NCBI GenBank assembly: GCA_965238175.1
Contig: CBDEGZ010000003.1
Span: forward strand, 222,076-286,075
Source: Gammaproteobacteria bacterium
Lineage (GTDB): Bacteria > Pseudomonadota > Gammaproteobacteria > CAJXQU01
Direction: 5' to 3'
DNA length: 64,000 bases
The position numbers and the translations under genes are program-made. Below the pieces are notes generated by a model, which was given only the letters and a program-made list of their open reading frames with translations, did not search any database and had not been told where the DNA came from. Positions 3,316-63,504 of this stretch are shown in pieces (the first letter of the stretch is position 1; the number at the start of each line of letters is the position of its first letter).

Positions 3316-5817
3316 ATGTATCGAAATTTCTTTAATCTACAAGAAAAACCTTTCAAACTAACGGCTTCACCGGAGGTATTCCACGACAATCAAGGAATCA
3401 CTCCTGCTTATAAGAAATTGATCAAAGCCATCCACTCCGAACAAAGATTGATTTTACTTTCAGGTCAAACGGGCACGGGTAAAACGTTGTGTGCAGAAAA
3501 ATTAAAGATCGATTTAAAAGGTGATCCCTATTTTGAATGTATTGCAATTCCTTTTACTTCCCTGCCACTTGACGAAATACTTGGTTACATTTGCAATAAT
3601 CTGAACCTTCATTTTGGTTTAGGCCAAGATATCGACAAGCTGGAAATTCTTGATCGTTTTCTCACACACGGACACTCTCCAATACGCTCAGTCATCATCT
3701 TAATCGACGAAGCACAAAATCTATCTCATACCATTTTGACTGGACTGGTCGAACTTGTAAAACTCGGTGTACGCTCAAAACGTAACATCCAAATTGTGGT
3801 GATGGCTCGCAATGAAACCGATCTGAATTTACATCACTCTCGCATGGCTGAATTTAATCAACATTTATCAGTAAAGTGTCAGTTAGAACCTCTCACTTTC
3901 GAAGAAACCGACTCCTATATTAAATATCATCTTGATATGGCTGGCGCTACAGACAACGGTTTTTTCACCAAGGAAGCCACCGCAAAAGTTTTTGAACTGA
4001 CTCAGGGTCGAGCACGAGCCATTAATGTTCTTTGTGATCACATCCTTAATACCGCCGCTCACGAAAAAGCAACCATCATTACGCCCCAACATGTATTTCA
4101 GTCTCACAACCAACAAAAGTTTGATGACACAATTGAAATGGATAGTTCACTTATTTCAGATGCTATTAAGGAATATGTATACGAAGAAAATCAAGTCTTA
4201 CAAAAAGAGTCGTATATCTCCACAAAACCAGAGATCTCAAATGAGCCTGATACAAAAGATCACTCTTTTTCTGAAATTGAACTTGAAGATACCGTTGAAC
4301 CTTTGATCACAAAGCTAAATACACTAGAAAACACTCACCCAACCAAATCTGTATCTAATCAATCTCTACCATCTGTAGAAGATGAAACAATAGAATTTGG
4401 AAGTACTATTATTCATACAAATAATGAACAACTGAAATCGAACACACGTAGTAAATTCAACATACCATTGTGGGGATTAATATCACTGCTTTTAATCGCA
4501 GGACTACTCTATCAAGTAAATCAACATAAGATTTTACCTTATTTAGAAAGCAGACAAATGGACCATGAAACTCTGCCACTAACAGTAGAACCTGTCATCC
4601 AACTTGCAGAAAAAATTGATCTGCCCGATGAAATTAATCTTCAAACGGAAATTGACACCCCAATAATCGACGAAAAGACCTCAAGAACCACTTATCCTCC
4701 AGAACAAAATTTCCCTGAATCTAATCGCACGATTAAAGAAAATACACTCAGCGAAAATCAAACTCTAACTGAAATTGTGCAAAAAGACCTAATGCCTGCG
4801 ACAATAATTATTGAATCGTCTGAAGAAAAAAATTCAGTTACCGAGATCGAGTTTTTATTAAAAAAAGCTAAAGTTCAAATAGCCAGTTTAAAACTTACAG
4901 TACCAAAAGATGATAATGCCTACGCAAGCTATAAGTCGATTTTACAAAAGGATCCTGAGAATGAACAAGCCAATCAAGGTATTGAAGATCTCAAACAAAT
5001 GTTCATTGAATGGGCAAAAAACAACGTCAAAAAAAACCAATTTGATCGCGCTCGCCATTATTATCGAAAAGCATTGATCGTCGATCCACAAGATCAAGAA
5101 ACACTACAAGCACTCTCCGAGCTTGAGAACAAAATCGGGGATACAGATAACATTGAATTTAAAGCTGGACTGTTAGGTCTCGCAGAAAAAGCCAACTTAG
5201 AAGAGATACAAATGCTTCTGAACAAAGGTGCGTTTCCAGAAGTACAAGATCAAAAAGGTAATACGCCACTAATGCTGGCTACCGAACGTGGTCATGTCGA
5301 AGTGATCGAAACATTATTAAACAATGGAGCTAATCCCAACATCAAAAACAACTCCGGTGACACTGCACTAATGAATGCGGTGTGGAATGCACACGCTGAA
5401 ATTGTTGATCTTTTGATCAATAAACAAGCAAATATTGATACCGCAAACAAACGTGGATGGACGGCTTTAATGTATGCTGCAGTACAGGGCCATATAGAAA
5501 TACTAGAACGGTTGACTCTTATGCGAGCGAATTTAGAATCAGAAACTGATGATCAAAAAACTGCACTTGCCATCGCTGCCTACAACGGACAATATGAAAT
5601 TGTCAAAGCACTATTAAAAAGTGGTGCACAAATAGATACACAAGATATATCTGGCTGGACACCTTTAATGTCTGCGGCCTGGAATGGTTATAAACCGATT
5701 GTGATTATGCTTTTAGAACATGGCGCAGATAAATCTATCGCCACCCCTGAAGGTGACAATGCTTTTGAGTTAGCCTCGGAACAGAGCCACTACTCCATTA
5801 TGACGTTACTAAAATAG
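3316..5817 (+). CDS. ExeA/GspA-like P-loop ATPase (GQTGTGKT, DEAQ box) with TM segment and C-terminal TPR + ankyrin repeat region
   Basis: N-terminus has Walker A 'GQTGTGKT' and 'LIDEAQNL', typical of ExeA/MSHA-type secretion ATPases (PEP-CTERM-locus ATPase-like). A TM helix lies near residues 380-400 (PLWGLISLLLIAGLLY). TPR-like repeats come next, then 6-7 ankyrin repeats (GNTPLMLATERGHVEVIETLLNNGANPN...). Confidence 0.8.
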   Translation: MYRNFFNLQEKPFKLTASPEVFHDNQGITPAYKKLIKAIHSEQRLILLSGQTGTGKTLCAEKLKIDLKGDPYFECIAIPFTSLPLDEILGYICNNLNLHFGLGQDIDKLEILDRFLTHGHSPIRSVIILIDEAQNLSHTILTGLVELVKLGVRSKRNIQIVVMARNETDLNLHHSRMAEFNQHLSVKCQLEPLTFEETDSYIKYHLDMAGATDNGFFTKEATAKVFELTQGRARAINVLCDHILNTAAHEKATIITPQHVFQSHNQQKFDDTIEMDSSLISDAIKEYVYEENQVLQKESYISTKPEISNEPDTKDHSFSEIELEDTVEPLITKLNTLENTHPTKSVSNQSLPSVEDETIEFGSTIIHTNNEQLKSNTRSKFNIPLWGLISLLLIAGLLYQVNQHKILPYLESRQMDHETLPLTVEPVIQLAEKIDLPDEINLQTEIDTPIIDEKTSRTTYPPEQNFPESNRTIKENTLSENQTLTEIVQKDLMPATIIIESSEEKNSVTEIEFLLKKAKVQIASLKLTVPKDDNAYASYKSILQKDPENEQANQGIEDLKQMFIEWAKNNVKKNQFDRARHYYRKALIVDPQDQETLQALSELENKIGDTDNIEFKAGLLGLAEKANLEEIQMLLNKGAFPEVQDQKGNTPLMLATERGHVEVIETLLNNGANPNIKNNSGDTALMNAVWNAHAEIVDLLINKQANIDTANKRGWTALMYAAVQGHIEILERLTLMRANLESETDDQKTALAIAAYNGQYEIVKALLKSGAQIDTQDISGWTPLMSAAWNGYKPIVIMLLEHGADKSIATPEGDNAFELASEQSHYSIMTLLK

Positions 5818-8864: not shown

Positions 8865-9211
8865 TGGAAATAGAAAAACTTAAAAAAATCGTCATCGAAG
8901 CACTGGAAGATATTAAGGCTGAAGACATTCAGGTTTTAGATGTAAGTGAGATAACCTCTATCGCAGACTATATGATTGTCGCCTCTGGTAATTCTACTCG
9001 ACAGGTGAAAGCTTTGGCCCATAATGTTGTCGAAGAAGCCAAGAAAAATGGTGTGCAGCCAATCGGAACCGAGGGTGAAGAAAAGGCAGAATGGGTATTA
9101 GTTGATCTCGGTGATATTATTATCCACGTTCTAAAACCTGAAACGCGGGAGTTTTATCAGCTAGAAAAACTCTGGGCACCGCAAGTGGATCAAGTTCAAT
9201 CTCAAGAGTAA
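8864..9211 (+). CDS. rsfS: Ribosome silencing factor RsfS (Iojap family)
   Basis: 115-aa Iojap-like protein ('SIADYMIVASGNSTRQVKALA...WVLVDLGDIIIHV'). Classic nadD-rsfS-rlmH synteny. Confidence 0.9.
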   Translation: MEIEKLKKIVIEALEDIKAEDIQVLDVSEITSIADYMIVASGNSTRQVKALAHNVVEEAKKNGVQPIGTEGEEKAEWVLVDLGDIIIHVLKPETREFYQLEKLWAPQVDQVQSQE

Positions 9212-9223
9212 GTTAAAACCAGT

Positions 9224-9694
9224 ATGCAAATACAGCTACTGGCAATTGGGAAACGGATGCCAGATTGGATCGGGATGGGATATAAAGAATACGCAAACCG
9301 TCTTAAATCAACATTACCTCTCAACTTGATTGAGATTGCCACCACTCGAAAATCAAATTCACAAGATAGTAAAACCGTCATTCGTGGAGAAGGTGAAAAG
9401 TTACTGGCAACTATTCCTGAAAAAGCCTGGGTTGTCGCGCTTGATGAACATGGCAAGCAGTGGAGCAGCAAAGAACTCGCAGAACAAATGGAAAAATGGG
9501 CCGATCATTCCTCACAAATCGCCCTTTTGATCGGTGGTGCAGACGGTTTAGATAAAGCTTGTCTAGATCGAGCAGATCAAATTTGGTCTTTATCAGCATT
9601 GACCTTACCGCATGCGTTAGTGCGTGTTGTCGTAGCTGAACAGATTTACCGCGCTTGGAGCCTTAATAGTAACCATCCATATCATCGATCATGA
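9224..9694 (+). CDS. rlmH: 23S rRNA (pseudouridine1915-N3)-methyltransferase
   Basis: SPOUT-fold RlmH-like sequence, 156 aa. Synteny with rsfS. Confidence 0.9.
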   Translation: MQIQLLAIGKRMPDWIGMGYKEYANRLKSTLPLNLIEIATTRKSNSQDSKTVIRGEGEKLLATIPEKAWVVALDEHGKQWSSKELAEQMEKWADHSSQIALLIGGADGLDKACLDRADQIWSLSALTLPHALVRVVVAEQIYRAWSLNSNHPYHRS

Positions 9695-10260
9695 AGCTTT
9701 ACCTCGCATCACAATCTCCCCGTCGTCGTGAATTGCTTGATCAAATTGATGTGAGTTATGAATGCCTGGATGTTGATATCAATGAAGATTGGGATGGTAA
9801 AGAACAAGCACGAGACTATGTGGCGAGACTCGCGCTAGAAAAAGCACAGACGGGTTACAAGTTATTGGAAGACAAAACTGATTGTGTGGTGTTGGGTGCA
9901 GATACATCCGTTGTCTTGGATGATGATATTCTCGGTAAAGCTACAAACCGGCAAGAAGTTTATAAGATGTTGTCTCGACTCTCTGGTCGCGTTCATTATG
10001 TATACACTGGTGTTGCTTTAGTAGGTTTCGAAAAGGAGGTTCTTGTTAATCTGAATAGAGTAACTTTCCGGCCATTATCTCAGAATGAATTAGAGAGCTA
10101 TGCTGCTTCGAACGAACCGCTTGGAAAAGCAGGTGGTTACGCAATTCAAGGAATGGCTGCAAAATTTATAGAACGCATTGAAGGAAGTTATTCTGGTATT
10201 ATGGGGTTACCATTGTTTGATGTTGCCGTTTTATTAAAAGGGAAAGCAATAATTTATTAA
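9691..10260 (+). CDS. maf: Maf-like nucleoside triphosphate pyrophosphatase
   Basis: 'LYLASQSPRRRELL' N-terminal Maf signature, 189 aa. Its start overlaps the rlmH stop. Confidence 0.9.
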   Translation: MKLYLASQSPRRRELLDQIDVSYECLDVDINEDWDGKEQARDYVARLALEKAQTGYKLLEDKTDCVVLGADTSVVLDDDILGKATNRQEVYKMLSRLSGRVHYVYTGVALVGFEKEVLVNLNRVTFRPLSQNELESYAASNEPLGKAGGYAIQGMAAKFIERIEGSYSGIMGLPLFDVAVLLKGKAIIY

Positions 10261-15700: not shown

Positions 15701-16702
15701 ATGTCTAGACGTTTATTAATGTTTTTCACACTTTGTTTCGTCGTTCTTAATTTGTCGATTCCAACGAGTATTGCAAAAGGTCCACTTTCCGGGAAAATTT
15801 ATGCAATCGAGGTAGATGGCACGTTTGCTTATATGGGTGCTGGAGAAGAATTGGTTGTTTTTGATGTAACCAACCCCATCAAACCTATTCAGATCGCTAG
15901 TTTAGGGTTATTGGGTGATTCGGTTCAAGACATTCAAATAGTTGGAGATCTTGCTTTTATCGCGACGGGAACAGCAGGATTACATATTATCAATGTTGTA
16001 GATCCGTATCAGCCAGCGAAGGTCAGTAGGCTTGAAACACCAGGCCAGGCCAGTGGTGTCTATGTGGTTGATGGTTATGCTTATCTTGCAGCGGGTTCTG
16101 GTCTTATCATACTGGATGTAAGCGATCCTGAAAAACCGGCTCCTGTCGCATTTTCTGAGACGCTTGGTTGGGATAGTGATGTAATCGTTGCGAAAGGTTA
16201 TGCCTATGTCGCATCTGGTGAAGAAGGCGTTCGGGTTGTAGATGTTAGCAATCCACATGCGCCGACAATTATTGGTTCAATTGATACCCCTAACGATGCA
16301 AATGGCATTTTTGCAGAAAGTGATCTTCTCTTTATTGCTGCAGGATCCGGTGGGTTACAGATCGTAAATATCAGTGATCCATCTAATCCAAAAGAAGTCA
16401 GTGTTGAAGATACGGGTTATGCACGACAAGTCATAGTCAGTTCTGGTTATGCCTATATTGCTTCAGAAAGGAAGGGCTTATGCACAGTAGATATTTCCAG
16501 TCCGACAAGACCAGAGCTTATCAAACGTTACCCTGCTGAAGGTTCGGCTAATAGCATTGATGTAGAGGATGGTTACATTTTCACAGCAGATGGCATTGGT
16601 GGTCTACTGGTTATAAATGGTTTCATGAATCATTCGAGTATATCAGATAGTCAATATTCTCCCGCGCCTGATTCCGTGAGAAGTTTCACACCTAAGAAAT
16701 GA
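15701..16702 (+). CDS. Secreted LVIVD-repeat beta-propeller protein
   Basis: Signal peptide. ~8 repeats of the 'GYAYVA.G..GL.IVDVSDP..P' LVIVD-type motif. Confidence 0.8.
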   Translation: MSRRLLMFFTLCFVVLNLSIPTSIAKGPLSGKIYAIEVDGTFAYMGAGEELVVFDVTNPIKPIQIASLGLLGDSVQDIQIVGDLAFIATGTAGLHIINVVDPYQPAKVSRLETPGQASGVYVVDGYAYLAAGSGLIILDVSDPEKPAPVAFSETLGWDSDVIVAKGYAYVASGEEGVRVVDVSNPHAPTIIGSIDTPNDANGIFAESDLLFIAAGSGGLQIVNISDPSNPKEVSVEDTGYARQVIVSSGYAYIASERKGLCTVDISSPTRPELIKRYPAEGSANSIDVEDGYIFTADGIGGLLVINGFMNHSSISDSQYSPAPDSVRSFTPKK

Positions 16703-16758
16703 TTTCACTTATAAATAATAAACATACAACAATTAAAAAAAGTAGATGGGAAATTGAT

Positions 16759-19700
16759 ATGAGAAGGATGCTTGCGTCACCCCTAAGAAGACTGCAATTG
16801 AGTCTTAAACATAAACGACTTAATAACCTCATGATCATTATTTTTATGATGATGTTTGGTTTGTCTATCGTGAAAGCTGCTACGCCGCTTTCTGAGGCAG
16901 GTTACAGAGGTTTTTCCTATCCGACAGCGCTTAGCCAACCAACAGGTGAAAAGCCCGAGAGTAAATTGTGGTTCAACGATGGTTTTTGGTGGGGCATTCT
17001 TTGGAGCACTTCTGGCGGAGCGCATCATATACATAGACTGGATGAGAACACACAAGACTGGATAGATACTGGCGTATCAGTTGATGATCGTGATGACTCA
17101 AAGTCAGACACTCTGTGGGATGGAAACAATCAAAAACTCTATGTTGTCTCACACCGATTCATCAGTAATGCAGGGCAATCAGCGACTTCAGGTAACCGCG
17201 GTGAATTGTACCGTTATAGCTACAGTGCTGGATCAAATTCTTACAGCTTGGATAGTGGTTTCCCAGTTGAAGTTAATGCAGCAAGAACTGAGACATTAGT
17301 TATAGAAAAGGATTCGAATGATCGCCTATGGGTCACATATACTCGAGATCAGACTGTCTATCTAAACCATAGTGGTTCCAGCGATACTGATTGGGATCCT
17401 ACGAATAGACCATTTATTCTACCTACTGGAGATAATACGGTAGATATCGGTGCTGATGACAACTGCTCGATTGCAACTTTTAACAACAACATTGGTGTCA
17501 TGTGGAGCAACCAATCAGATGACAAAATGTATTTTTCTGCTCATCCAGATAGCGCTAGTCCAACTACAGGTTGGTCGAGTGGTGTTGTGGTATTCGAAGG
17601 TGCTGGAAACAGGTCAGCAGACGATCACATTAACTTGGCCTCTCTTGATGGTGATCCGGCCGGTGAAGTTTTTGCCGTTACTAAAACCTCGGAATCAAAT
17701 GCTCGAAATATGCTGTTAGTCTGTGACAGCGGTTGTACTTCAAGTAGTGATTGGACAGCATACACAGCTTATCAAGAGGGTGGCAGTGTGGGAAATCCCA
17801 CACGTCCAGCGGTTGTTATTGATACCAGTAATCGCCAGTTATATGTTTTCACAAGTGTGAGTGATAGTGGTCGAGATATATATTACAAAGTAACCGATCT
17901 GGATAATATCCAGTTTAATGCCTCAAGTTTAGGTAGCCCGCTTATAAAAGATTCCTCGAACTCCCCAAATAATGTTACGTCCACTAAGCAGAATTTGAAT
18001 AGTTCAACGGGATTGGCAGCTCTTTCTGCAACTGGCAGTCGATATTTACACAACCAATTTCCACTGAGCGCTAGCCCTAGTCCCGACATAACCGTAACGC
18101 CGATATCACGTAACTACGGAGACGTTGTAGTGAACGGTGTAGGTTCATTCAACTTTATAGTTAGTAACGATGGAACAACCACATTGAATGTGAGCAGCAC
18201 AAGCCTTCTTGGAAGTGATTCCGATCAGTTCAACATCGATAGTGGTAACGGTTCTTTTAGCCTGAACCAAGGGCAGAGTCAGACTGTGAGCTTGAGCTTT
18301 AACCCGACCACTGTTGGTAACAAGAGCGCAACTTTACGAATAGCGAGTAACGATCCGAACGAAGATCCCTTTGATGTAAGCCTAACCGGAAATGGTGTGA
18401 TAAGCGCTCCAGATATAACGGTCACTCCGAGCGCCAATGATTATGGAGACATTGAGGTTGGTAACACAGTTTCTTTTAACGTTGAGATCAGAAATGACGG
18501 CAGCGAAAACCTGAACGTATCGGCCCTGTCCTTGGCTGGCAGTAATCCGGGTGAATTTAGTATAGACAGCGGACAAAGTGGCAGCACTTTAGCTCCAGGT
18601 CAAAGCCAGGTAGCTGCTGTGAGTTTCAACCCTAGTTCCCTAGGGGATAAGAGCGCAATTTTAAGCATTCCTAGCAATGATCCAGATGAAAATCCGAGCA
18701 ATGTGGATTTGAGCGGCAGAGGTATATCGCCTGGAATGGGCGGCGGCACTCTAACACTTTCCCCTAGTGACGACGCACGTGTGAGCTTGGGATTTCCCAG
18801 AAGTAATTACGGCTCAGACACAGTAATAAGAATACGAGGAGCAGGCACAAGCTCTCATGAAAGTTACCTGAAATTTAACGTGGCCGGACTTACAGGTACA
18901 CCGACATCGGCCAAATTACGTCTTTTCGTAACCGATGGAAGTCCTGATGGTGGTGATGTCTACATAGTTGGCAACAGCTGGGATGAATCCACGATCACAG
19001 CGGGTAATGCACCAGCGATTAGTGGCAGCCCAATTGCTAGTGCGGGTTCAGTTATTAATGGAATCTGGATAGAGATCGATATAACTTCTGAGATTACAGG
19101 CAATGGAACTTATAGTTTTGGTATGCGGAGTAATAGCTCGAATAGTGCTCGTTACAGTTCAAAAGAAGGTGCTAATCCGCCAGAACTGGTGATCGAACAA
19201 TCCGGTACAAGTGGTTCTGTTACACCGACACTCAGTAAGAGTTTCAACCCAATAACCATCACAAGCGGAGGTATATCGACACTGACCTTGACGATCAATA
19301 ACAACGGAAATAGCGTTGCCCTGACAGGTTTAAGTGTCAGTGATAACTATCCTGCGGCGATCACAAATGCGGCTTCAGCGAATGCCAGTAGCACCTGTAG
19401 CGGTGGTACTCTGAATGCGGCAAACGGCGGTAGCAGTATTAGCTATACCGGAGGAAGCGTTGCGGCAGGGTCGAGTTGTACGATAAGTGTGAATGTGACC
19501 AGCAACACTGTAGGCCAACACCTTAATACTAGCGGCGTGGTCAGCAGTACTGAAGCACCGGACAGTGCAACAGCGAGTGCCACATTAACTGTGAATAGTG
19601 AAGTTGTAGCACCAACACTGAGCAAGAGTTTTAACCCAACCTCCATCACAAGCGGAGGTATATCGACACTGACCTTGACGATCAATAACAACGGAAATAG

Positions 19701-21789
19701 CGTTGCCCTGACAGGTTTAAGTGTCAGTGATAACTATCCTGCGGCGATCACAAATGCGGCTTCAGCGAATGCCAGTAGCACCTGTAGCGGTGGTACTCTG
19801 AATGCGGCAAACGGCGGTAGCAGTATTAGTTATACCGGAGGAAGCGTTGCGGCAGGGTCGAGTTGTACGATAAGTGTGAATGTGACCAGCAACACTGTAG
19901 GCCAACACCTTAATACTAGCGGCGTGGTTAGCAATGCAGAGGCACCGGATAGCACAACAGCGAGTGCAACTTTGGGTGTTACTTCATCAGGGGGTGGTGG
20001 TGGTGGCACTCTAACACTTTTCCCTAGTGACGACGCACGTGTGAGCTTGGGATTTTCCGGAAGTAACTACGGCTCAGACACAGTAGTAAGGGTTCGGGGA
20101 GCAGGTACAAGCTCCCATGAAAGTTACCTGAAATTTAACGTGGCTGGATTAACGAGCATACCTACATCGGCTAAATTACGTCTTTTCGTAACCGATGGAA
20201 GTCCTGATGGCGGTGGTGTATACGTCGTTGGCAGCGGCTGGGATGAATCGACTATCACAGGGAGTAATGCACCTGCAATTAGCGGTAGCCCAATTGCTAG
20301 TTCAGGTTCAGTTACGAATGGAACCTGGGTAGAGATAGATATAGCTTCGGCGATTACAGGCAACGGCACTTATAGTTTTGGTATACGGAGTAATAGCTCG
20401 AATAGTGCTCGTTACAGTTCCAAAGAAGGTACGAATCCACCAGAATTAGTAATTGAATCATCGGGAATTCCTACCCCAGACATAACCGTAACGCCGACAT
20501 CAAATAACTACGGAGATGTTACAGTCAATGGAATGGGTTCAATTAATTTTACGGTACGCAACGATGGAATCGCCACTTTGAATGTGAGTGGTACAAGTTT
20601 GATTGGAAGCGATCCTACAGAGTTCAACATCGACAGTGGTGGTTCATTCAGCCTGACTCAAGGACAAACTCAGGTGGTGAGCGTGAGTTTCAACCCAACG
20701 TCAATTGGTGGTAAGAGTGCAAGCTTACGAATAGCGAGTAACGATCCGAACGAAGATCCACTTGACGTAAGCCTAACTGGTAACGGTGTAGTTAGCGCTC
20801 CAGATATAACGGTCACTCCGAGCACTCACAGCTATGGCGACATTGTTGTAGGAAACTCGGACTCTCTTAACATAGTTATCCGTAATGATGGTAGCCAAAA
20901 CCTGATCGTATCTGCCGTGTCCTTGAGTGGAAGTAATCCGGGGGAATTCAGTATAGACAGCGGCGGTAATGGCGGCATTCTGACTCCTGGACAAAGTCAG
21001 ACGGTTACGGTGAGTTTCAATCCCAGTTCTCTAGGAACTAAGGCCGCAGTTTTAAGTATTCCTAGCGATGACCCGGATGAAAACCCGATCGATGTGGATT
21101 TGAGTGGCACAGGTGTTGATACTCCACTACCAGGTGGTAACGTGACATTCGAAGATATACAGGCTGGCGGTTCATCGAGTGCTACTGCTGTTTCAACTTC
21201 GGGTAATGTGACAGGTGTTAGTGGTGATTTGTATTTAGCGACTATCACCAGTAAATCCTTCAAGACGGTTACATCGGTTACTGGACTAGGTTTAAGTTGG
21301 AGTCTGGTCACGGAGCAATGTGCTGGACGTAACCAGACGGGTGTAACTGTTTGGCAAGCTCAGGGTAGTAGTCCTACCTCCAGCACAGTAACAGCAAATT
21401 TATCAGGAGCTCCAACTAATGCAACAATTACAGTGTCACGTTACTCCGGTGTGAGCCAAACAGATCCCATTGGAAACATTATTTCTGGTAACACTAATGG
21501 TGTGAGCGGAGCTTGTTCTGGAGGCACTGATTCTAATAGTTATAACTTTAATCTAGACACTACTACGCATGGGTCTGTCGTATTTGGAGCTATTGCCATG
21601 CGTAACAAAGCTCATACTGAAGGTTTTGGTTACACTGAACAGGTAGAGTTTGTACAGGGCAGTGGTGGCGGAAGTGCTTCGGTAGCTAACATGGATCAGA
21701 CTATTTTTAGCCCATCGACGGTTAGTGTTGATGGTATATTTAGTAGCAATGTTGACTACGCTGTTATTGGTATTGAGATCAAGCCATAG
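16759..21789 (+). CDS. Giant (~1.68k aa) secreted multi-domain surface protein with glycan-binding / adhesin-like modules
   Basis: Long signal-like N-terminus (…KHKRLNNLMIIIFMMMFGLSIVKA). N-terminal globular region. Two pairs of ~110-aa beta-sandwich repeats ('DITVTP..NYGDV.VG....F.V.NDG...L.VS' type). Two ~150-aa 'TLTL.PSDDARVS...SNYGSD...R.RGAGTSSHESYLKFNV' modules. Two identical ~130-aa 'conserved repeat/DUF11-like' modules. A poly-Gly linker. The start could also be the ORF-track ATG at 16699; 16759 is chosen because it precedes the basic/hydrophobic signal region. Confidence 0.8.
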   Translation: MRRMLASPLRRLQLSLKHKRLNNLMIIIFMMMFGLSIVKAATPLSEAGYRGFSYPTALSQPTGEKPESKLWFNDGFWWGILWSTSGGAHHIHRLDENTQDWIDTGVSVDDRDDSKSDTLWDGNNQKLYVVSHRFISNAGQSATSGNRGELYRYSYSAGSNSYSLDSGFPVEVNAARTETLVIEKDSNDRLWVTYTRDQTVYLNHSGSSDTDWDPTNRPFILPTGDNTVDIGADDNCSIATFNNNIGVMWSNQSDDKMYFSAHPDSASPTTGWSSGVVVFEGAGNRSADDHINLASLDGDPAGEVFAVTKTSESNARNMLLVCDSGCTSSSDWTAYTAYQEGGSVGNPTRPAVVIDTSNRQLYVFTSVSDSGRDIYYKVTDLDNIQFNASSLGSPLIKDSSNSPNNVTSTKQNLNSSTGLAALSATGSRYLHNQFPLSASPSPDITVTPISRNYGDVVVNGVGSFNFIVSNDGTTTLNVSSTSLLGSDSDQFNIDSGNGSFSLNQGQSQTVSLSFNPTTVGNKSATLRIASNDPNEDPFDVSLTGNGVISAPDITVTPSANDYGDIEVGNTVSFNVEIRNDGSENLNVSALSLAGSNPGEFSIDSGQSGSTLAPGQSQVAAVSFNPSSLGDKSAILSIPSNDPDENPSNVDLSGRGISPGMGGGTLTLSPSDDARVSLGFPRSNYGSDTVIRIRGAGTSSHESYLKFNVAGLTGTPTSAKLRLFVTDGSPDGGDVYIVGNSWDESTITAGNAPAISGSPIASAGSVINGIWIEIDITSEITGNGTYSFGMRSNSSNSARYSSKEGANPPELVIEQSGTSGSVTPTLSKSFNPITITSGGISTLTLTINNNGNSVALTGLSVSDNYPAAITNAASANASSTCSGGTLNAANGGSSISYTGGSVAAGSSCTISVNVTSNTVGQHLNTSGVVSSTEAPDSATASATLTVNSEVVAPTLSKSFNPTSITSGGISTLTLTINNNGNSVALTGLSVSDNYPAAITNAASANASSTCSGGTLNAANGGSSISYTGGSVAAGSSCTISVNVTSNTVGQHLNTSGVVSNAEAPDSTTASATLGVTSSGGGGGGTLTLFPSDDARVSLGFSGSNYGSDTVVRVRGAGTSSHESYLKFNVAGLTSIPTSAKLRLFVTDGSPDGGGVYVVGSGWDESTITGSNAPAISGSPIASSGSVTNGTWVEIDIASAITGNGTYSFGIRSNSSNSARYSSKEGTNPPELVIESSGIPTPDITVTPTSNNYGDVTVNGMGSINFTVRNDGIATLNVSGTSLIGSDPTEFNIDSGGSFSLTQGQTQVVSVSFNPTSIGGKSASLRIASNDPNEDPLDVSLTGNGVVSAPDITVTPSTHSYGDIVVGNSDSLNIVIRNDGSQNLIVSAVSLSGSNPGEFSIDSGGNGGILTPGQSQTVTVSFNPSSLGTKAAVLSIPSDDPDENPIDVDLSGTGVDTPLPGGNVTFEDIQAGGSSSATAVSTSGNVTGVSGDLYLATITSKSFKTVTSVTGLGLSWSLVTEQCAGRNQTGVTVWQAQGSSPTSSTVTANLSGAPTNATITVSRYSGVSQTDPIGNIISGNTNGVSGACSGGTDSNSYNFNLDTTTHGSVVFGAIAMRNKAHTEGFGYTEQVEFVQGSGGGSASVANMDQTIFSPSTVSVDGIFSSNVDYAVIGIEIKP
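19223..19985 (+). repeat. Intragenic near-perfect tandem duplication (~390 bp x 2) inside the giant gene
   Basis: Nucleotides ~19223-19612 and ~19613-19985 are almost identical base-for-base (e.g. 'cacaagcggaggtatatcgacactgaccttgacgatcaataacaacggaaatagcgttgccctgacagg...'). The encoded modules are 'PTLSKSFNP.TITSGGISTLTLTINNNGNSVALTGLSVSDNYPAAITNA...'. Confidence 0.9.
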
Positions 21790-21810
21790 TCGAAAATTAA
21801 ATATATAAGG

Positions 21811-22305
21811 GTGCCAGTTATTATTTGTGGCACCCTTTATTATTTGTGGCACCCTTTATTATTTGTGGCACCCTTTATTATTTGTGGCACCCTTTATTAT
21901 TTGTGGCACCCTTTATTATTTGTGGCACCCTTTATTATTTGTGGCACCCTTTATTATTTGTGGCACCCTTTATTATTTGTGGCACCCTTTATTATTTGTG
22001 GCACCCTTTATTATTTGTGGCACCCTTTATTATTTGTGGCACCCTTTATTATTTGTGGCACCCTTTATTATTTGTGGCACCCTTTATTATTTGTGGCACC
22101 CTTTATTATTTGTGGCACCCTTTATTATTTGTGGCACCCTTTATTATTTGTGGCACCCTTTATTATTTGTGGCACCCTTTATTATTTGTGGCACCCTTTA
22201 TTATTTGTGGCACCCTTTATTATTTGTGGCACCCTTTATTATTTGTGGCACCCTTTATTATTTGTGGCACCCTTTATTATTTGTGGCACCCTTTATTATT
22301 TGTGG
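21811..22305. repeat. Perfect tandem array: 19-bp unit GTGGCACCCTTTATTATTT x 25, plus one degenerate leading copy
   Basis: Directly visible; the period of 19 is confirmed by the 3-nt shift per 60-nt line. It starts 22 bp after the giant-gene stop and ends inside the last codons of the convergent gene at 22277. No spacers, so it is not a CRISPR array. Confidence 0.95.
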
Positions 22306-23569
22306 AATGGGTCCAACCAGTCCACCCAATGTTTTTACCGAACCGGGTTTTCTTACGATTCCAAAAGGAGGTAGCGTAGTAACAATCAACTAATGGCAAC
22401 TGCCAGGTATCATCACCAGTAGCTGAAAAATTAGCTTCATCATTTAACCAACTGTAAGCTCTTAATAAGGCCTTATCTTGCCAATTGAATGGATCATATC
22501 CTTGTCTCTGAAGAATGATTGCTTGAACGAGTGCACCCTGTAGTGCTTCGTAAACGTAGTTTTCCTTAGGTGGCGGCCATTGAAATCCACCACCTCGGCG
22601 TTGATCATCAGGTAAGACTCCATCTATGGAGTGTCCTTCTTTTTTACAGCCTTTTGGATTGATTCCGACAGGCTTATTTGCGTGGCACTGCCAGGCAAAA
22701 CCATATCTATAAACGAAATTTGAATATGCGTCGCGATCACCAAGCCATCCTTTAAAGACAGTGGCCGCACGGTGGATTTCTGCACGATCATTAAGATATA
22801 CCGCAATTGCTAAACGGCTTGCGCCGGCGTGAGTGCCCCAATTATTAGGTCGCTCTTCATGGGTGGAAATTAAAGTTTTCCTGCTAAGAGTGTCCGGTTG
22901 CGAATAGCGAACATTGCTTAGCCAAGCCTTAAAAAGCACTTCTTGTTTTGGGGAAAGTGTGATGAGATCAGCTGCAATAACATAAGCAGCAAGTTCTCGG
23001 CCCAATGCTAACGTAGAGCCACCTTTTTCTGTTCCCATAATCATCATGATTTGTCCCATTATTTCCTGATGAAAACTCTTTAATTCAATATCACTACATT
23101 GCAGAGATGAAGGCTCTTGGGTACAACGCACATAAACAAGGGCTTTCCCTAAGATATAGACATTGTGTTTTTGTTTATTATTACTTAAGTTCGGCTTGCC
23201 AACTGGTTTAATTGCCTGTTTTTTTAGTTGCTCCCAGGCTTCTCCTTGCATATCTAGATCAGCAAGTTCTTCAGCACTAATCCAAATACTTGTTTTTTCG
23301 GCTGGCACTGGATTTTCGTTTTCAGAAGAATTTTGTTCTAACCCAATAAGTTTACGATCCGATCCGGCATCAGCCAGAGTAACCCCTTCAGAACGAGTAA
23401 CGTCTTTTTTGCTCAGGCGAAGATCTTGTGATGAGAGTTTTTGATCTGTTGAGTACTGATCAGGTTTCTCATAATCGATCATTGTTAGACCAGTAATGGT
23501 TAACAGACTGAGCGCAGTGAGAATTGTACAAAATACGAAAAACCGTCTCATCCTTATTCTTATCTCCAT
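22277..23569 (-). CDS. Secreted alginate-lyase-family (PL5/PF05426-like) polysaccharide lyase
   Basis: Signal peptide (MRRFFVFCTILTALSLLTITG). 'NNWGTHAGASRLAIAVYLNDRAEIHRAATVF' resembles the '[28 protein letters not shown]' catalytic region of alginate lyases. 'YVYEALQGALVQAI' is similar to a conserved helix. This is a by-eye match only. Confidence 0.5.
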   Translation of the reverse strand: MEIRIRMRRFFVFCTILTALSLLTITGLTMIDYEKPDQYSTDQKLSSQDLRLSKKDVTRSEGVTLADAGSDRKLIGLEQNSSENENPVPAEKTSIWISAEELADLDMQGEAWEQLKKQAIKPVGKPNLSNNKQKHNVYILGKALVYVRCTQEPSSLQCSDIELKSFHQEIMGQIMMIMGTEKGGSTLALGRELAAYVIAADLITLSPKQEVLFKAWLSNVRYSQPDTLSRKTLISTHEERPNNWGTHAGASRLAIAVYLNDRAEIHRAATVFKGWLGDRDAYSNFVYRYGFAWQCHANKPVGINPKGCKKEGHSIDGVLPDDQRRGGGFQWPPPKENYVYEALQGALVQAIILQRQGYDPFNWQDKALLRAYSWLNDEANFSATGDDTWQLPLVDCYYATSFWNRKKTRFGKNIGWTGWTHSTNNKGCHK

Positions 23570-33078: not shown

Positions 33079-35883
33079 ATGAACGATACAGCGAAAAAAA
33101 GGGAAGAAGAAATTGAGAATGGACAGGGAAGTCGCAAGAAGAGGTATTCTTGGGCATCTAAAATTAAAGCTGTTAAACAAGTTCTAGGCGGTCGGCCCAT
33201 GGATGAAGTTGCAAGTGAATATGGAGTGCGTCCTAAAACGATAAGCAAGTGGTGTCGAAACTGGAAGAAAGAATTTGCAAAGAACGTAGTAGATGATCAT
33301 AGCAAAGTAGATAGCCCTAAAGATTCGCTTGTAACTCGTGCTGTTGAGCATTGGAATGATTCAGCTGATGATTTAATTGTTGATGCAATAGGTAAAAACT
33401 TAAATGCAACACATAGGATTGATAATTCACCTCCAAGACATTCGACAGAAATAACGAACACATCATCACATCATGAAAGAAGAACCATAAAAAATAGTGA
33501 GGATATCTACAAGCAGCAACTAAATGTTCAACAATTCTCAAAAAATCAATCAAGTAGGAGGATAATTGAACCACAAACCGCATTCTCAGGCCAGGCATCC
33601 CTTAGAGAAGTCTTGGGAATACTACAGGAATCTAAGTGGTTTATTAGCCGGATCGTTCTACTTACGGCACTTCTGGGAATATTACATCTTTGGTTTGTAC
33701 CGCCTATTTACCGAGCAGATGCAATACTGGAAATTGAAGAAAATGTTCGTGGCACAGGTGCCGTCCTTGATAATTCTAACGATCTGAATGAGGAAGGTGC
33801 CATTGTTAGTGAGGAAGTCGAGATCCTTAAATCCAGAGCAGTTGTTCGTGAAGTTGTTAATAATCTTAAATTAGATTTCATTATGAGTCCAAAATACTTC
33901 CCGGTTATCGGGGAGGCAATCGCGCGAAAAAATCCTATATTAACAAACTCAAAGGAAGGTTTATCTGAAGTACCTTTATCTGCGGCATGGATTGTTAAGC
34001 AGATTCCATCAATTGAAGAGCCTCTAAAATCCACATATGCATATATTCAAACCTTAAAAACAAAATTATATGATCAACTCAAGTCTTCAAAATATGCGTG
34101 GGGAAATGAACAAATTATTGTAGAAGAAATGATCGTGCCTGATAGTTTATTGGGTGTGAAATATACCGTTATAGCTACGGATAACAAACAATATCAATTG
34201 CTTGATCAAGATGGACAAAAATTAGGAATGGGCAAAATTGGAGAGCCACTTGAGATCTCATTGCCGGATGGAAAGTTTGTCTTGCTTCTTTCAGACCTTA
34301 CTGCCACGACAGGTAAGCATTTTGAAATAACGAGAGTTCCGTTGATTGTCGCGATTGGTCAACAACAGAAAAATGTGATCGTGCGAGAGAAAGCGGGTGT
34401 TGTTAACTCTGGTCTTTTGGGCGTAACTCTAGAAGGAGCGGACAGGTTTAGCATTGTATCCATCATTAACGAGTTAATGGATACTTATATTCGCCAAAAT
34501 GTTGATCGTAAAGCAGCTAATGCTGAAAAGAAATTAAGCTTCATGGAGGAGCAGCTTGCTGTTCTCGAAGAAAGCATGAGTACAGCAGAGCAAGGATTGA
34601 ACAACTATCGACAGCAAGAAGGTTCCGTTGATCTGGCGACAGAGTCGGAAGTAATTCTAAAGCGAATTGTTGAAGTAGAATCGGAAATTTCAAGTCTTAC
34701 CAGGAATCGTCTTGAGCTTATCCAAAAATTTAAACCCAGACATCCTAAGATTCGGGCATTAGATGGACAGGTAGGTACATTAAAAAGAGAGCTGGAAAAA
34801 TTGAACGGAAAGGTAAAGAAATTACCAGATACACAACAGCAAGTACTCAGTATGACAAGAGACGTCGATGTTCAAGCTAAACTTTACTCTTTTCTTTATA
34901 ATAAAATTCAAGAACTTAAAGTTATTACTGCCGGTTCTATTGGAAACTTAAGAGTTGTTGATTATGCAACACTGCCGGTTGAGCCTGTCAAACCGCAAGG
35001 AAAAGTGATAATCGTAGCGTATCTATTGCTGGGTTTAATTCTAGGGGTTGGCGCCAGCTTTGTTAGAAGGGGAATGCATGCAGGGGTACATGATCCAGAG
35101 GTTATTGAGAAACAACTGGGCCTTGAGGTTCTTGCGGAGCTACCTTTGAGCCCACAACAGGCTAAACTTAAGAAAAGCAGCATTTTTGGTAAAAGTTCTA
35201 AAAAAGGTATTCTTGCGATTGTTAATCCAGAAGATCCAACCATTGAGGGTCTGCGTAATCTTAGAACCTCACTTTACTTCTCTCAGTTTGAGTCGAAAAA
35301 TAATCTGATAGTCATTACTGGGCCTGCACCAGAAGTAGGCAAATCATTTGTTTCTATAAATTATGCTGCTGTTTTAGCAAGTTCGGGTAGTCGTGTTTTA
35401 GTGATTGATGCAGATTTTCGCAGGGGCACTATCAGTGAATATGTCGGGATAGAACGCCATAGTGGGCTATCTGATTTGATCCTTGGGAAAATGAGTGCTG
35501 AGGAAGTGATTCAAGAAACAGATGTTGAAGGTCTGGACGTCATCACATCAGGCAAAATGCCTTCGAATCCTTCAGAGCTGCTACTACACGAAAACTTCGC
35601 AAGAGTATTAGAAAACATTTCGGCAAACTATAATTTTGTGATCATTGATACACCCCCAATCTTGGCATTTTCTGATGCCACGGTAATCGCACGACTTGCT
35701 GGCTCAGCTTTGCTTGTGGTCAAGTCTGGAATGCATTCGGTACGCCAGTTGGAATACACCATCAAGCAATTAAATAAAGCTGACGTCAAGTTAGAAGGTG
35801 TTGTTTTCAATGGACTGGATATAACAAATACAGCTTATGGGTACGGGCACAGTTATGGTTATTCGTACTCTTACAAAAATTAA
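33079..35883 (+). CDS. Polysaccharide co-polymerase / BY-kinase (Wzc/EpsG-like tyrosine autokinase) with unusual N-terminal transposase-like HTH extension
   Basis: TM1, periplasmic coiled-coil Wzz-like region, TM2, then Walker A 'GPAPEVGKSFVSINYAA', Walker B 'VIIDTPP', and a Tyr-rich tail 'YGYGHSYGYSYSYKN'. The first ~110 residues ('KRYSWASKIKAVKQVLGGRPMDEVASEYGVRPKTISKWCRNWKK') look like an IS3-OrfA-type HTH. The true start may be internal, possibly non-ATG. Confidence 0.85.
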   Translation: MNDTAKKREEEIENGQGSRKKRYSWASKIKAVKQVLGGRPMDEVASEYGVRPKTISKWCRNWKKEFAKNVVDDHSKVDSPKDSLVTRAVEHWNDSADDLIVDAIGKNLNATHRIDNSPPRHSTEITNTSSHHERRTIKNSEDIYKQQLNVQQFSKNQSSRRIIEPQTAFSGQASLREVLGILQESKWFISRIVLLTALLGILHLWFVPPIYRADAILEIEENVRGTGAVLDNSNDLNEEGAIVSEEVEILKSRAVVREVVNNLKLDFIMSPKYFPVIGEAIARKNPILTNSKEGLSEVPLSAAWIVKQIPSIEEPLKSTYAYIQTLKTKLYDQLKSSKYAWGNEQIIVEEMIVPDSLLGVKYTVIATDNKQYQLLDQDGQKLGMGKIGEPLEISLPDGKFVLLLSDLTATTGKHFEITRVPLIVAIGQQQKNVIVREKAGVVNSGLLGVTLEGADRFSIVSIINELMDTYIRQNVDRKAANAEKKLSFMEEQLAVLEESMSTAEQGLNNYRQQEGSVDLATESEVILKRIVEVESEISSLTRNRLELIQKFKPRHPKIRALDGQVGTLKRELEKLNGKVKKLPDTQQQVLSMTRDVDVQAKLYSFLYNKIQELKVITAGSIGNLRVVDYATLPVEPVKPQGKVIIVAYLLLGLILGVGASFVRRGMHAGVHDPEVIEKQLGLEVLAELPLSPQQAKLKKSSIFGKSSKKGILAIVNPEDPTIEGLRNLRTSLYFSQFESKNNLIVITGPAPEVGKSFVSINYAAVLASSGSRVLVIDADFRRGTISEYVGIERHSGLSDLILGKMSAEEVIQETDVEGLDVITSGKMPSNPSELLLHENFARVLENISANYNFVIIDTPPILAFSDATVIARLAGSALLVVKSGMHSVRQLEYTIKQLNKADVKLEGVVFNGLDITNTAYGYGHSYGYSYSYKN

Positions 35884-44700: not shown

Positions 44701-44739
44701 CCTATCCAACTTTATATTAAGTTTAAGTTGGATAGGTTT
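44701..44739 (+). terminator. Rho-independent terminator of hppA (12-bp stem, 12-nt loop, TTT tail)
   Basis: cctatccaactt-tatattaagttt-aagttggatagg followed by ttt. It begins 32 bp after the hppA stop. The IS481 copy is inserted immediately at its U-tract. Confidence 0.6.
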
Positions 44740-44742
44740 ACT

Positions 44743-45968
44743 TGTAGAAATTCAGATTTGATCTGACAGTTACCCAATTATCAGTAACCGACTGTCAGGT
44801 TAAGTTTAATTCACAAACTTTTCCTTCCAGATAGCTTGTCCGTCGATGAGTGTTTCCATCGGCGTCCTCCCGCAGCACATTTTGCCTTGGTGAGTTCGTT
44901 GAGTATTGTATTTGAGCAACCATTCGTCAAGGTCGAGTTGCAGTTCATCAATCGATTGGTAAATTTTCTTACGCAAAGCGACTTGATAAAACTCATTGAG
45001 GATCGTCTTATGGAATCGCTCACAAATACCATTCGTCTGAGGTGATTTGACCTTGGTTTTGGTGTGTTCGATATTGTTCAACGCCATATAAAGCTGATAA
45101 TCATGCTGGTCAGCTCGCCCACAATACTCCGTCCCTCTATCTGTCAAAATGCGCAACATAGGCAAACGTTGTTCTTCGTAGAATGGGAGGACGCGGTCAT
45201 TGAGCATGTCAGCTGCCGTAATCGGTGTTTTAGTCGGGTACAGTTTCGCGTGAGCGACCTTGCTGTAAGTATCAACAAACGTTTGTTGATAAACCCGACC
45301 AATGCCTTTGAAAGTACCGACATAGTAAGTATCTTGCGAGCCAAGATAACCAGGGTGTGCCGTTTCTATCTCGCCACAAGCCTCATCGTCGTCTTTTTTG
45401 CGTTCCATCGCCGCGACTTGAGACTCAGTGAGGATCAAGCCTTCACCAGCTACCTTATCAGACAATGCCTTCAGGCGATCTTTAAAGCAAGCAAGACCAT
45501 GACGAAGCCAGATACAACGAACGCCACTGGGTGAGACAAATGTTCCCCGTTTGCGCAGCTCGTTACTGGTGCGCGTTTGACCATGTGCGGGCTCTTCCAG
45601 TGCATACTCGAGCACAACGGTTTCAATAGCCGGGTCGATTCTGTTTTTAAGATTTGGGGTACGCCGATTACGATCAAACAAGGCTTCTACACCGCCTTCA
45701 TCAGCCGCTTCTTTGTAGCGATAAAATATATCTCTGGACAAACCCATCATCTTGCAGGCTTTTGAGACATTGCCGAGTTCTTCAGCGAGATTGAGTAGAC
45801 CAACTTTATGTTTTATAACTTTGTCATTAGTATGAATCATGAGAGTTACCTCTTTGTGTTTTGATGTTTACGTTGCAGTTACATCAAAGCGGGTAACTCT
45901 CACTAAATCAAGCGTCGCTACGCTCCGCTTGATTTAGTGATGTGTCAGATTGGGTCTAAACTTCTACA
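44743..45968 (-). mobile_element. IS481-family insertion sequence, copy 1 (1226 bp) with 7-bp target-site duplication GTTTACT
   Basis: Identical to the copy at 62266-63491. Imperfect ~24-bp terminal inverted repeats: TGTAGAAaTTcAGAtttgATCTGA / TGTAGAAgTTtAGAcccaATCTGA. Flanking direct repeat gtttact (44736-44742 and 45969-45975). Confidence 0.85.
44806..45840 (-). CDS. IS481-family DDE transposase (344 aa)
   Basis: N-terminal HTH ('LSRDIFYRYK') and rve-type integrase core ('...RILTDRGTEYCG...', 'NGICERFHKTILNEF'). It differs from the second copy by one residue (I/T). Confidence 0.9.
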   Translation of the reverse strand: MIHTNDKVIKHKVGLLNLAEELGNVSKACKMMGLSRDIFYRYKEAADEGGVEALFDRNRRTPNLKNRIDPAIETVVLEYALEEPAHGQTRTSNELRKRGTFVSPSGVRCIWLRHGLACFKDRLKALSDKVAGEGLILTESQVAAMERKKDDDEACGEIETAHPGYLGSQDTYYVGTFKGIGRVYQQTFVDTYSKVAHAKLYPTKTPITAADMLNDRVLPFYEEQRLPMLRILTDRGTEYCGRADQHDYQLYMALNNIEHTKTKVKSPQTNGICERFHKTILNEFYQVALRKKIYQSIDELQLDLDEWLLKYNTQRTHQGKMCCGRTPMETLIDGQAIWKEKFVN

Positions 45969-45982
45969 GTTTACTTATATTG

Positions 45983-62225: not shown

Positions 62226-62265
62226 GTTAAGAACATCTGCTTGAAGAAATAACGCTGCTTTAAAA

Positions 62266-63491
62266 TGTAGAAATTCAGATTTGATCTGACAGTTACCCAA
62301 TTATCAGTAACCGACTGTCAGGTTAAGTTTAATTCACAAACTTTTCCTTCCAGATAGCTTGTCCGTCGATGAGTGTTTCCATCGGCGTCCTCCCGCAGCA
62401 CATTTTGCCTTGGTGAGTTCGTTGAGTATTGTATTTGAGCAACCATTCGTCAAGGTCGAGTTGCAGTTCATCAATCGATTGGTAAATTTTCTTACGCAAA
62501 GCGACTTGATAAAACTCATTGAGGATCGTCTTATGGAATCGCTCACAAATACCATTCGTCTGAGGTGATTTGACCTTGGTTTTGGTGTGTTCGATATTGT
62601 TCAACGCCATATAAAGCTGATAATCATGCTGGTCAGCTCGCCCACAATACTCCGTCCCTCTATCTGTCAAAATGCGCAACATAGGCAAACGTTGTTCTTC
62701 GTAGAATGGGAGGACGCGGTCATTGAGCATGTCAGCTGCCGTAATCGGTGTTTTAGTCGGGTACAGTTTCGCGTGAGCGACCTTGCTGTAAGTATCAACA
62801 AACGTTTGTTGATAAACCCGACCAATGCCTTTGAAAGTACCGACATAGTAAGTATCTTGCGAGCCAAGATAACCAGGGTGTGCCGTCTCTATCTCGCCAC
62901 AAGCCTCATCGTCGTCTTTCTTGCGTTCCATCGCCGCGACTTGAGACTCAGTGAGGATCAAGCCTTCACCAGCTACCTTATCAGACAATGCCTTCAGGCG
63001 ATCTTTAAAGCAAGCAAGACCATGACGAAGCCAGATACAACGAACGCCACTGGGTGAGACAAATGTTCCCCGTTTGCGCAGCTCGTTACTGGTGCGCGTT
63101 TGACCATGTGCGGGCTCTTCCAGTGCATACTCGAGCACAACGGTTTCAATAGCCGGGTCGATTCTGTTTTTAAGATTTGGGGTACGCCGATTACGATCAA
63201 ACAAGGCTTCTACACCGCCTTCATCAGCCGCTTCTTTGTAGCGATAAAATGTATCTCTGGACAAACCCATCATCTTGCAGGCTTTTGAGACATTGCCGAG
63301 TTCTTCAGCGAGATTGAGTAGACCAACTTTATGTTTTATAACTTTGTCATTAGTATGAATCATGAGAGTTACCTCTTTGTGTTTTGATGTTTACGTTGCA
63401 GTTACATCAAAGCGGGTAACTCTCACTAAATCAAGCGTCGCTACGCTCCGCTTGATTTAGTGATGTGTCAGATTGGGTCTAAACTTCTACA
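62266..63491 (-). mobile_element. IS481-family insertion sequence, copy 2 (1226 bp) with 7-bp target-site duplication TTTAAAA
   Basis: Base-for-base near-identical to copy 1, same orientation. Flanked by tttaaaa on both sides (62259-62265 and 63492-63498). Confidence 0.85.
62329..63363 (-). CDS. IS481-family DDE transposase (344 aa)
   Basis: Same protein as 44806-45840 ('SRDTFYRYK' variant). Confidence 0.9.
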   Translation of the reverse strand: MIHTNDKVIKHKVGLLNLAEELGNVSKACKMMGLSRDTFYRYKEAADEGGVEALFDRNRRTPNLKNRIDPAIETVVLEYALEEPAHGQTRTSNELRKRGTFVSPSGVRCIWLRHGLACFKDRLKALSDKVAGEGLILTESQVAAMERKKDDDEACGEIETAHPGYLGSQDTYYVGTFKGIGRVYQQTFVDTYSKVAHAKLYPTKTPITAADMLNDRVLPFYEEQRLPMLRILTDRGTEYCGRADQHDYQLYMALNNIEHTKTKVKSPQTNGICERFHKTILNEFYQVALRKKIYQSIDELQLDLDEWLLKYNTQRTHQGKMCCGRTPMETLIDGQAIWKEKFVN

Positions 63492-63504
63492 TTTAAAAAC
63501 AGCG

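Follow-up and report, generated by a model that had tools for sequence, protein, structure and literature searches.

In a 64,000-nucleotide (nt) stretch of DNA from a Gammaproteobacteria bacterium (GenBank assembly GCA_965238175.1, contig CBDEGZ010000003.1, positions 222,076–286,075; hereafter the window), an open reading frame (ORF) at 16699..21789 on the + strand encodes a multi-module protein of 1696 amino acids (aa). Taken as a whole, the evidence is probably best explained by a Sec-exported, multivalent polysaccharide-binding and possibly polysaccharide-cleaving protein that belongs to a widespread family and is built from old modules, one pair of which carries a gene-conversion tract. 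An earlier sequence-only reading of this DNA had taken the gene for a rapidly evolving surface adhesin or carbohydrate-binding protein with very recent internal duplications. The parts of the protein, in window coordinates, are as follows.

16828..16878, + strand: hydrophobic core and VKA↓A cleavage motif of a predicted Sec-type signal peptide (aa 44-60), read from the translation
16879..18084, + strand: N domain (aa 61-462), a seven-bladed beta-propeller with no Pfam family
18085..18726, + strand: A-block 1 (aa 463-676), two choice-of-anchor D immunoglobulin (Ig)-like domains (NF012200)
18739..19200, + strand: B1 (aa 681-834), a CBM96 / DNRLRE module (PF24517, E 1.6e-62; NF033679)
19219..19605, + strand: C1 (aa 841-969), a DUF7933 (DUF11-like) Ig-like domain (PF25564)
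19606..19992, + strand: C2 (aa 970-1098), the tandem copy of the DUF7933 domain
19256..19541, + strand, with its partner at 19643-19928: putative gene-conversion tract, 286 nt with one mismatch
19999..20460, + strand: B2 (aa 1101-1254), the second CBM96 / DNRLRE module, 87% identical to B1 in nucleotides
20476..21117, + strand: A-block 2 (aa 1260-1473), two choice-of-anchor D domains
21133..21786, + strand: X domain (aa 1479-1696; 217 aa), an all-beta head with no Pfam family

Pfam and NCBIfam profiles bore out the domain guesses of the sequence-only reading, identifying four choice-of-anchor D domains, two DNRLRE/CBM96 modules and two DUF11-like DUF7933 domains. The choice-of-anchor D profile NF012200 scored 222.9 bits (cut-off 45) over four stretches, and the Pfam profiles Cep192_D4, HYDIN_VesB-like Ig and ASH matched four stretches each. 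CBM96 (PF24517) reached 210.6 bits (cut-off 26) and DNRLRE (NF033679) 134.8 bits (cut-off 34), both in two stretches; DUF7933 (PF25564) reached 205.8 bits (cut-off 26.5) in two stretches, at full length (1-123 of 123). Among solved structures in the PDB, the CBM96 module matched 8wab, a DNRLRE domain, at E 1.2e-5; 7vbo (TM6-N4, with a basic groove of Lys, Arg and Tyr for alginate or polyuronate) was unmatched in the single-sequence search, and the C domain had no PDB sequence match. The resulting order is N, then AA-B, CC-B and AA-X (NAABCCBAAX), that is, three units each made of two Ig-like spacers and a head, and the nested A-B-C-C-B-A order arises because these units share parts. The idea of a 'domain palindrome' as a special structure was rejected: the repeats are all direct, and the order is that of three spacer-spacer-head units, as in relatives.

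The repeats reported earlier exist, with coordinates within a few bases of those measured here. When the gene was plotted numerically against itself (60-nt windows, at least 70% identity), exactly four off-diagonals appeared, at offsets of 387, 1260, 2391 and 2394 nt, whereas three codon shuffles yielded none; an independent repeat search found pairs at the same spacings, and Tandem Repeats Finder returned a period of 387 nt with 1.9 copies and 95% matches. The tandem C copies (19219-19605 and 19606-19992, period 387 nt) differ at 32 positions and are 92% identical over the whole unit. In their centre (19256-19541 versus 19643-19928), a single mismatch occurs in 286 nt and identity is unbroken for up to 187 nt; the edges around this centre are about 75% identical, compared with 99.7% in the centre; the 'almost 100%' identity claimed for a ~390-bp tandem pair thus applies to the middle three quarters of the unit and not to its entire length. 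The B copies (18739-19200 and 19999-20460) are a real pair, 87% identical at an offset of 1260 nt, where ~460-bp modules of ~90% identity 1.2 kb apart had been described. The flanking beta-sandwich pairs are homologous, as proposed: the A-blocks (18076-18720 and 20470-21114) are 76-77% identical in nucleotides, and one 3-nt indel divides their alignment between offsets of 2394 and 2391 nt. In aa identity, A1/A1b (77%) and A2/A2b (73%) exceed comparisons between positions (52-57%), indicating that the A-block was duplicated as a whole. All intragenic offsets are divisible by 3.

Codon-wise comparison of the copies (Nei-Gojobori type counts) gave synonymous divergences (dS) of 0.85-0.87 for A/A', 0.41 for B/B' and 0.21 for C/C' overall, with ratios of non-synonymous to synonymous divergence (dN/dS) of 0.17-0.20, 0.18 and 0.24, respectively. 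Ratios this low (0.17-0.24 across all three pairs) are a sign of purifying selection, and the characterization 'rapidly evolving' is not supported. The C/C' average conceals a mosaic. In the centre (94 codons) dS is 0.014 with zero non-synonymous changes, and at the edges it is 1.32 (left, 13 codons) and 1.48 (right, 22 codons) with dN/dS of 0.08-0.18; this amounts to 1 synonymous difference in ~70 sites in the centre versus 16.8 in ~26 at the edges (Fisher p = 1.6e-11). When the length of the longest identical run was tested by permutation, C/C' was likewise significant (p < 5e-5). The same test for conversion tracts was not significant for B/B' and A1/A1', and A2/A2' gave p = 0.01 for an exact run and 0.08 when one mismatch was allowed, too weak to call a tract.

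Because selection at the protein level is unable to strip synonymous differences from the centre only, an old C-C pair with a recently homogenised middle is the simplest reading, in which the near-identity of the DUF7933 pair would reflect a recent gene-conversion tract on an old pair and not a new duplication. By the same measure, the A-blocks and CBM96 modules appear to be older intragenic paralogues (dS ~0.85 and 0.41), and the tandem DUF7933 pair, with edge dS >1, appears at least as old as either. The 'very recent duplications' of the sequence-only reading are not supported: the edges of the C pair are saturated at synonymous sites (dS ~1.3-1.5, against 0.014 in the centre), and a relative, P0002, shares the 387-nt C-C period.

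P0002, a protein of 1973 aa, derives from ENA metagenome assemblies and shares its cluster with a protein from a Methylococcales metagenome-assembled genome (MAG). It is 65% identical to the studied protein in the N domain and 61% in the B-C-C-B stretch, and its architecture is N followed by C-B, CC-B, CC-B and CC-B, or 3.5 CC-CBM96 units. The 387-nt period of its C-C pairs occurs three times with 85-86% matches, and its 1254-nt CC-B units have a mutual identity of 87-100% per 100-nt window, mostly at least 96%, over ~3 kb. Copies within the studied gene resemble one another more than they resemble those of P0002 (C, 92% versus 55-58% aa identity; B, 86% versus 65-71%), a closeness that would fit either concerted evolution or lineage-specific duplication. 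Since P0002 holds 3.5 near-identical units, amplification happens in the family; judged from such comparisons, module content evidently differs strongly between related lineages and recent unit amplification evidently occurs. The general idea of modular plasticity put forward by the sequence-only reading is therefore supported at the level of lineages.

Mapping the ten modules onto 122 retrieved homologues revealed a common plan. About 115 of the 122 begin with N and continue with one to five B or X heads (rarely both), separated by Ig-like spacers of the A, C, PKD, TIG, cadherin-like or InlB B-repeat types; NAAX is common, and NAAXAAX, NBB, NBBB and NXX also occur. With N alone as query, an exhaustive search yielded 963 cluster representatives at E <= 1e-30 and, at the looser E <= 1e-3, 2,351 spread over many phyla. 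A homology search found an identical protein in public databases, in a 90% cluster of one member, and no close orthologue; the named homologues that it returned include Calditrichia, KSB1, Acidobacteriota, Chloroflexi and Latescibacterota. Like other choice-of-anchor D and DUF11/DUF7933 repeat proteins, which are large surface or secreted Ig-repeat proteins of bacteria, the studied protein contains runs of ~105-130-aa Ig-like domains with high intragenic similarity, and NCBI-style annotation names it accordingly. Here, however, these domains form pairs that space globular heads, whereas proteins such as P0004 (20 A domains) and P0082 (12 C domains) carry long homogeneous arrays. In the locus of a Cytophagia MAG (L001, 11544-19657), a homologue of 49% identity is split over ORFs of 867, 195 and 1544 aa, which suggests frameshifts or assembly errors in a repeat-rich gene.

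Export is predicted from the N-terminus. The start at 16759 given by the sequence-only reading is an in-frame ATG (Met21), and the longer ORF from 16699 is also possible. Downstream of both, the translation reads as a Sec-type leader, with basic residues, a hydrophobic run and then the cleavage motif (..KHKRLNNLMIIIFMMMFGLSIVKA↓AT), and this region aligns with the N-terminus of P0002. The protein would accordingly be secreted, as had been proposed. At the other end, the chain terminates in the X domain (..VIGIEIKP). No Pfam or NCBIfam match in the protein corresponded to an anchor or sorting domain (a type IX secretion system C-terminal domain, LPXTG, PEP-CTERM or an autotransporter barrel), and the term 'surface adhesin' is not supported; a Por_Secre_tail is present in several relatives.

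We considered other origins for the near-identical C copies. The whole 387-nt unit might have been duplicated very recently, its linker-like ends then diverging fast under relaxed or diversifying selection. Such an event would suit the tandem layout, the 92% overall identity and the fact that the unit ends abut inter-domain linkers, but the differences at the ends are mostly synonymous (16.8 in 26 sites versus 1 in 70 in the centre), a contrast that protein selection cannot make; the ends also fall within the Pfam DUF7933 envelope, and their dN/dS is 0.08-0.18. We consider this course of events highly unlikely. An assembly or polishing artefact, affecting either the near-identical stretch or the entire repeat structure, is very unlikely. 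The exact run of 187 nt is longer than short-read k-mers, a suspiciously perfect array of 25.7 copies of a 19-nt unit lies just downstream, and the repeats come from assembled sequence; yet the 32 differences between the copies leave the frame intact, polishing homogenises only copies that are already near-identical and cannot yield a contrast of 99.7% versus 75%, the independent assembly of P0002 has the same 387-nt period three times, and the 3.33-Mb contig suggests long-read data. We give equally little credence to a contingency locus subject to phase or antigen variation, where slippage at the repeats would turn the protein on and off or alter its surface. Long direct repeats within the gene and the microsatellite-like 19-nt array adjoining it are features of the kind expected, but all intragenic offsets are multiples of 3 and keep the reading frame, the array starts 29 nt past the stop, and the convergent gene stops in the first unit that it reaches; array copy number should thus alter neither product, and dN/dS of ~0.2 speaks against diversifying selection. 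Phase variation was rejected, since every intragenic offset preserves frame: with offsets that are multiples of three, whole modules are gained or lost in frame and no switch results.

Several points weigh against our preferred account of a secreted protein with an old C pair and a recent conversion tract. The edge dS estimates come from 13 and 22 codons only and are saturated, and the C copies lack position-specific orthology to those of P0002 (55-58% aa identity to all), which is why the age of the pair was derived from edge dS together with the shared 387-nt period and not from a tree. The repeat structure is as given by the assembled sequence. Apart from the Sec leader, no anchor or secretion-system signal was found. 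No close strain was present in the collections searched (a protein scan of genome contigs gave only relatives of at most 49% identity, and metagenome contigs 50% at best), and module gain or loss in this lineage was not observed.

The genomic context suggests a polysaccharide ligand. The gene sits in a ~30-kb exopolysaccharide locus of the Wzx/Wzy type, which contains an initiating sugar transferase (Bac_transf), a GT2 glycosyltransferase, a Wzx flippase and an LVIVD propeller gene; other members are a convergent alginate-lyase-like gene, an NHL protein, a kinase-like protein and a sulfotransferase, and the locus also contains Wzy, Wza, Wzc, a GT4 glycosyltransferase and a deacetylase. The gene directly upstream is the following.

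15701..16702, + strand: secreted LVIVD-repeat beta-propeller gene (Pfam LVIVD, E 3.2e-47)

Its stop overlaps the ATG at 16699 of the multi-module gene (ATGA), and it is 59% identical to the gene at 8951-9940 of the P0002 locus (L005), which lies directly upstream of the P0002 gene. The LVIVD gene and the N-propeller gene thus look like a conserved pair, and with proA-nadD nearby in both, the studied locus and L005 look syntenic. The founding member of CBM96 binds alginate, and CBM96 is found on lyases of acidic polysaccharides (PMC9971899; PMC13260240). Two CBM96 modules make carbohydrate binding by the protein plausible, in line with the earlier proposal, and the position of the gene, inside a Wzx/Wzy locus and beside one for an alginate-lyase-like protein, makes the exopolysaccharide of the cell itself, which is probably acidic or sulfated, the most likely target. 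In base composition, the gene has a G+C content of 0.43-0.48 per 2-kb window (16000-22000; 0.46 overall, with 0.38 at third codon positions (GC3)), the flanking polysaccharide genes are poorer (0.34-0.39; GC3 0.29-0.34), and the gene of the relative is likewise richer than its locus (0.53 versus 0.45). Either a Gly/Ser/Thr/Ala-rich composition or a foreign origin of the modules may account for this.

We propose that after export by Sec, the two CBM96 heads and the single X head, held apart by Ig spacers, would bind the cell's own exopolysaccharide. With three heads, the protein could either cross-link or retain the polymer, and lectin or lyase/hydrolase activity could come from the propeller. 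At the DNA level, a recent non-reciprocal recombination event (gene conversion) would have copied ~286 nt from one DUF7933 copy onto the other. RecA-type unequal recombination between A, B or C copies would remove or add segments of 2391/2394, 1260 or 387 nt without loss of the reading frame, and the deletion products would be NAAX, NAABAAX or a single-C form.

The N domain (aa 61-462) had no Pfam match even at E = 10 and no PDB sequence match with either the single sequence or a profile, and by sequence it does not belong to GH145, PL42, PL25 or PL24; it does have the seven-bladed beta-propeller fold of these families. Structure comparison scored 28.3 for GH145 BACINT_00347, 27.5 for CylK, 27.0 for the lectin BP39L, 27.0 for the PL42 rhamnose-glucuronate lyase, 26.6 for the lectin PLL and 24.2 for the PL25 ulvan lyase, compared with about 22 for generic WD40 propellers. 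Foldseek agreed, returning PLL/PHL lectins, GH145 and PL24. The predicted fold is thus closest to GH145, PL42, PL25 and the propeller lectins. Invariant residues of the propeller are of the His, Arg, Tyr, Lys, Asp, Glu and Trp types and include H222, H250, Y115, R71, R112 and R309, numbered within the domain; positions in the complete chain are higher by 60. The X domain, which recurs one to four times in many family members, gave only chance-level matches, to 4mt0 in the PDB (E 0.52) and to PF23374 in Pfam (E 0.36, in a search up to E 10).

The protein might be chiefly an enzyme, with the N propeller as the catalytic module of an undescribed lyase or hydrolase family, the repeats as binding appendages, and any adhesin or scaffold role secondary. 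CBM96 accompanies the propeller in 26 of 43 sampled relatives, and catalytic modules are the usual partners of carbohydrate-binding ones (PMC9971899). Among the best structural matches are three families active on uronate-containing glycans (GH145, PL42 and PL25), the invariant His, Arg, Tyr, Lys, Asp and Glu would suit such a role, and some family members carry an Alginate_lyase or Wzy_C domain in the same chain. We regard an enzyme of this kind as possible, though on balance doubtful. The narrower proposal, that the propeller is the catalytic module of an undescribed polysaccharide lyase/hydrolase family trimming or remodelling the producer's own exopolysaccharide and that X founds a new carbohydrate-binding module family, we put forward just as tentatively.

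Known systems offer partial parallels for the polysaccharide-binding protein that we favour. Like multimodular carbohydrate-active enzymes with tandem CBM96 (DNRLRE) modules, such as the alginate lyase Dp0100 of Defluviitalea phaphyphila (PMC9971899), the studied protein is multi-domain and predicted to be secreted, with CBM96 modules between Ig/fibronectin type III-like spacers; unlike those enzymes, it has no recognised polysaccharide lyase or glycoside hydrolase module, and its N-terminal propeller has no family assignment. The closest known propeller systems are GH145 (BT3686, BACINT_00347), PL42 (FoRham1), the PL25/PL24 ulvan lyases and the PLL/PHL-type lectins. In Vibrio cholerae, the secreted biofilm-matrix proteins RbmC and Bap1 contain both a beta-propeller and lectin modules and bind the organism's own exopolysaccharide. 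Their likeness is a functional analogy to the proposed role only; the propeller and head types differ, and no relationship in sequence or domains is expected.

Immediately downstream of the multi-module gene lies a further element.

21808..21838, + strand: terminator-like hairpin just past the stop, with a 10-bp stem (AAGGGTGCCA/TGGCACCCTT) and an 11-nt loop

The minimum free energy of the 96-nt hairpin region is -25.3 kcal/mol (z = -3.0). From 21818 to 22305, beginning 29 nt past the stop, runs a perfect tandem array of 25.7 copies of a 19-nt unit (TTATTATTTGTGGCACCCT; 100% identity). The unit comprises the loop and 3' arm of the hairpin, such that the RNA would have one 5' arm and ~26 alternative 3' arms. 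With no stop codon in any + frame, the array gives rise to spurious ORFs of 184-188 aa, and the convergent alginate-lyase-like gene (22277..23569, minus strand) takes its final ~9 codons and its stop from it. Recent slippage expansion or an assembly problem could account for the array; the unit was absent from the 15 related loci fetched, and an Rfam scan of the window returned no RNA family.

Elsewhere in the window, an insertion sequence (IS) of ~1.24 kb is present in two copies (44736-45975 and 62259-63498) that are 99.1% identical (11 mismatches) and have imperfect terminal inverted repeats. Each encodes a 344-aa helix-turn-helix (HTH) and rve-type (DDE) transposase, whose protein cluster numbers 25 members spread over many short contigs. 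At 33079-35883, the 934-aa ORF of the Wzc-like tyrosine kinase/co-polymerase starts with a ~65-aa match to a transposase HTH (HTH_Tnp_1, HTH_28), which could be an in-frame fused IS remnant or mean that the ORF was called too long at its start. Flanked by an OmpA-family gene and proA, the region 3316-5817 encodes an 833-aa protein with an AAA ATPase (AAA_22/AAA_16) in its N-terminal part and ankyrin repeats in its C-terminal part.

That the modules of a large secreted repeat protein evolve in concert is well known; many repeat arrays in bacterial surface proteins have been described in which gene conversion acts on intragenic repeats in this way. Like those cases, this gene contains a block of near-identity within diverged paralogous repeats, and its repeats are more alike within the gene than orthologues are between species. 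In contrast to typical arrays, it shows one clear tract, between two copies, and its other pairs have no significant tract. The methodological lesson is that a duplication cannot be dated from a block of near-identity within the repeat; in this gene, mosaicism at synonymous sites reveals the concerted evolution of old modules in a protein under purifying selection. The in-frame direct repeats predict variants lacking 387, 1260 or 2391/2394 nt. What is more novel is that two of the modules, the N propeller and the X head, represent large families that lack a curated description, a Pfam entry and any solved homologue. Secreted propeller and CBM96/X proteins linked to exopolysaccharide loci form a large unnamed family, of which this protein is an example. 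Should the propeller be catalytic, or should the X head bind glycans, these modules would count as new families in CAZy, with relevance to how environmental bacteria, methanotroph relatives among them, turn over their biofilm matrix.

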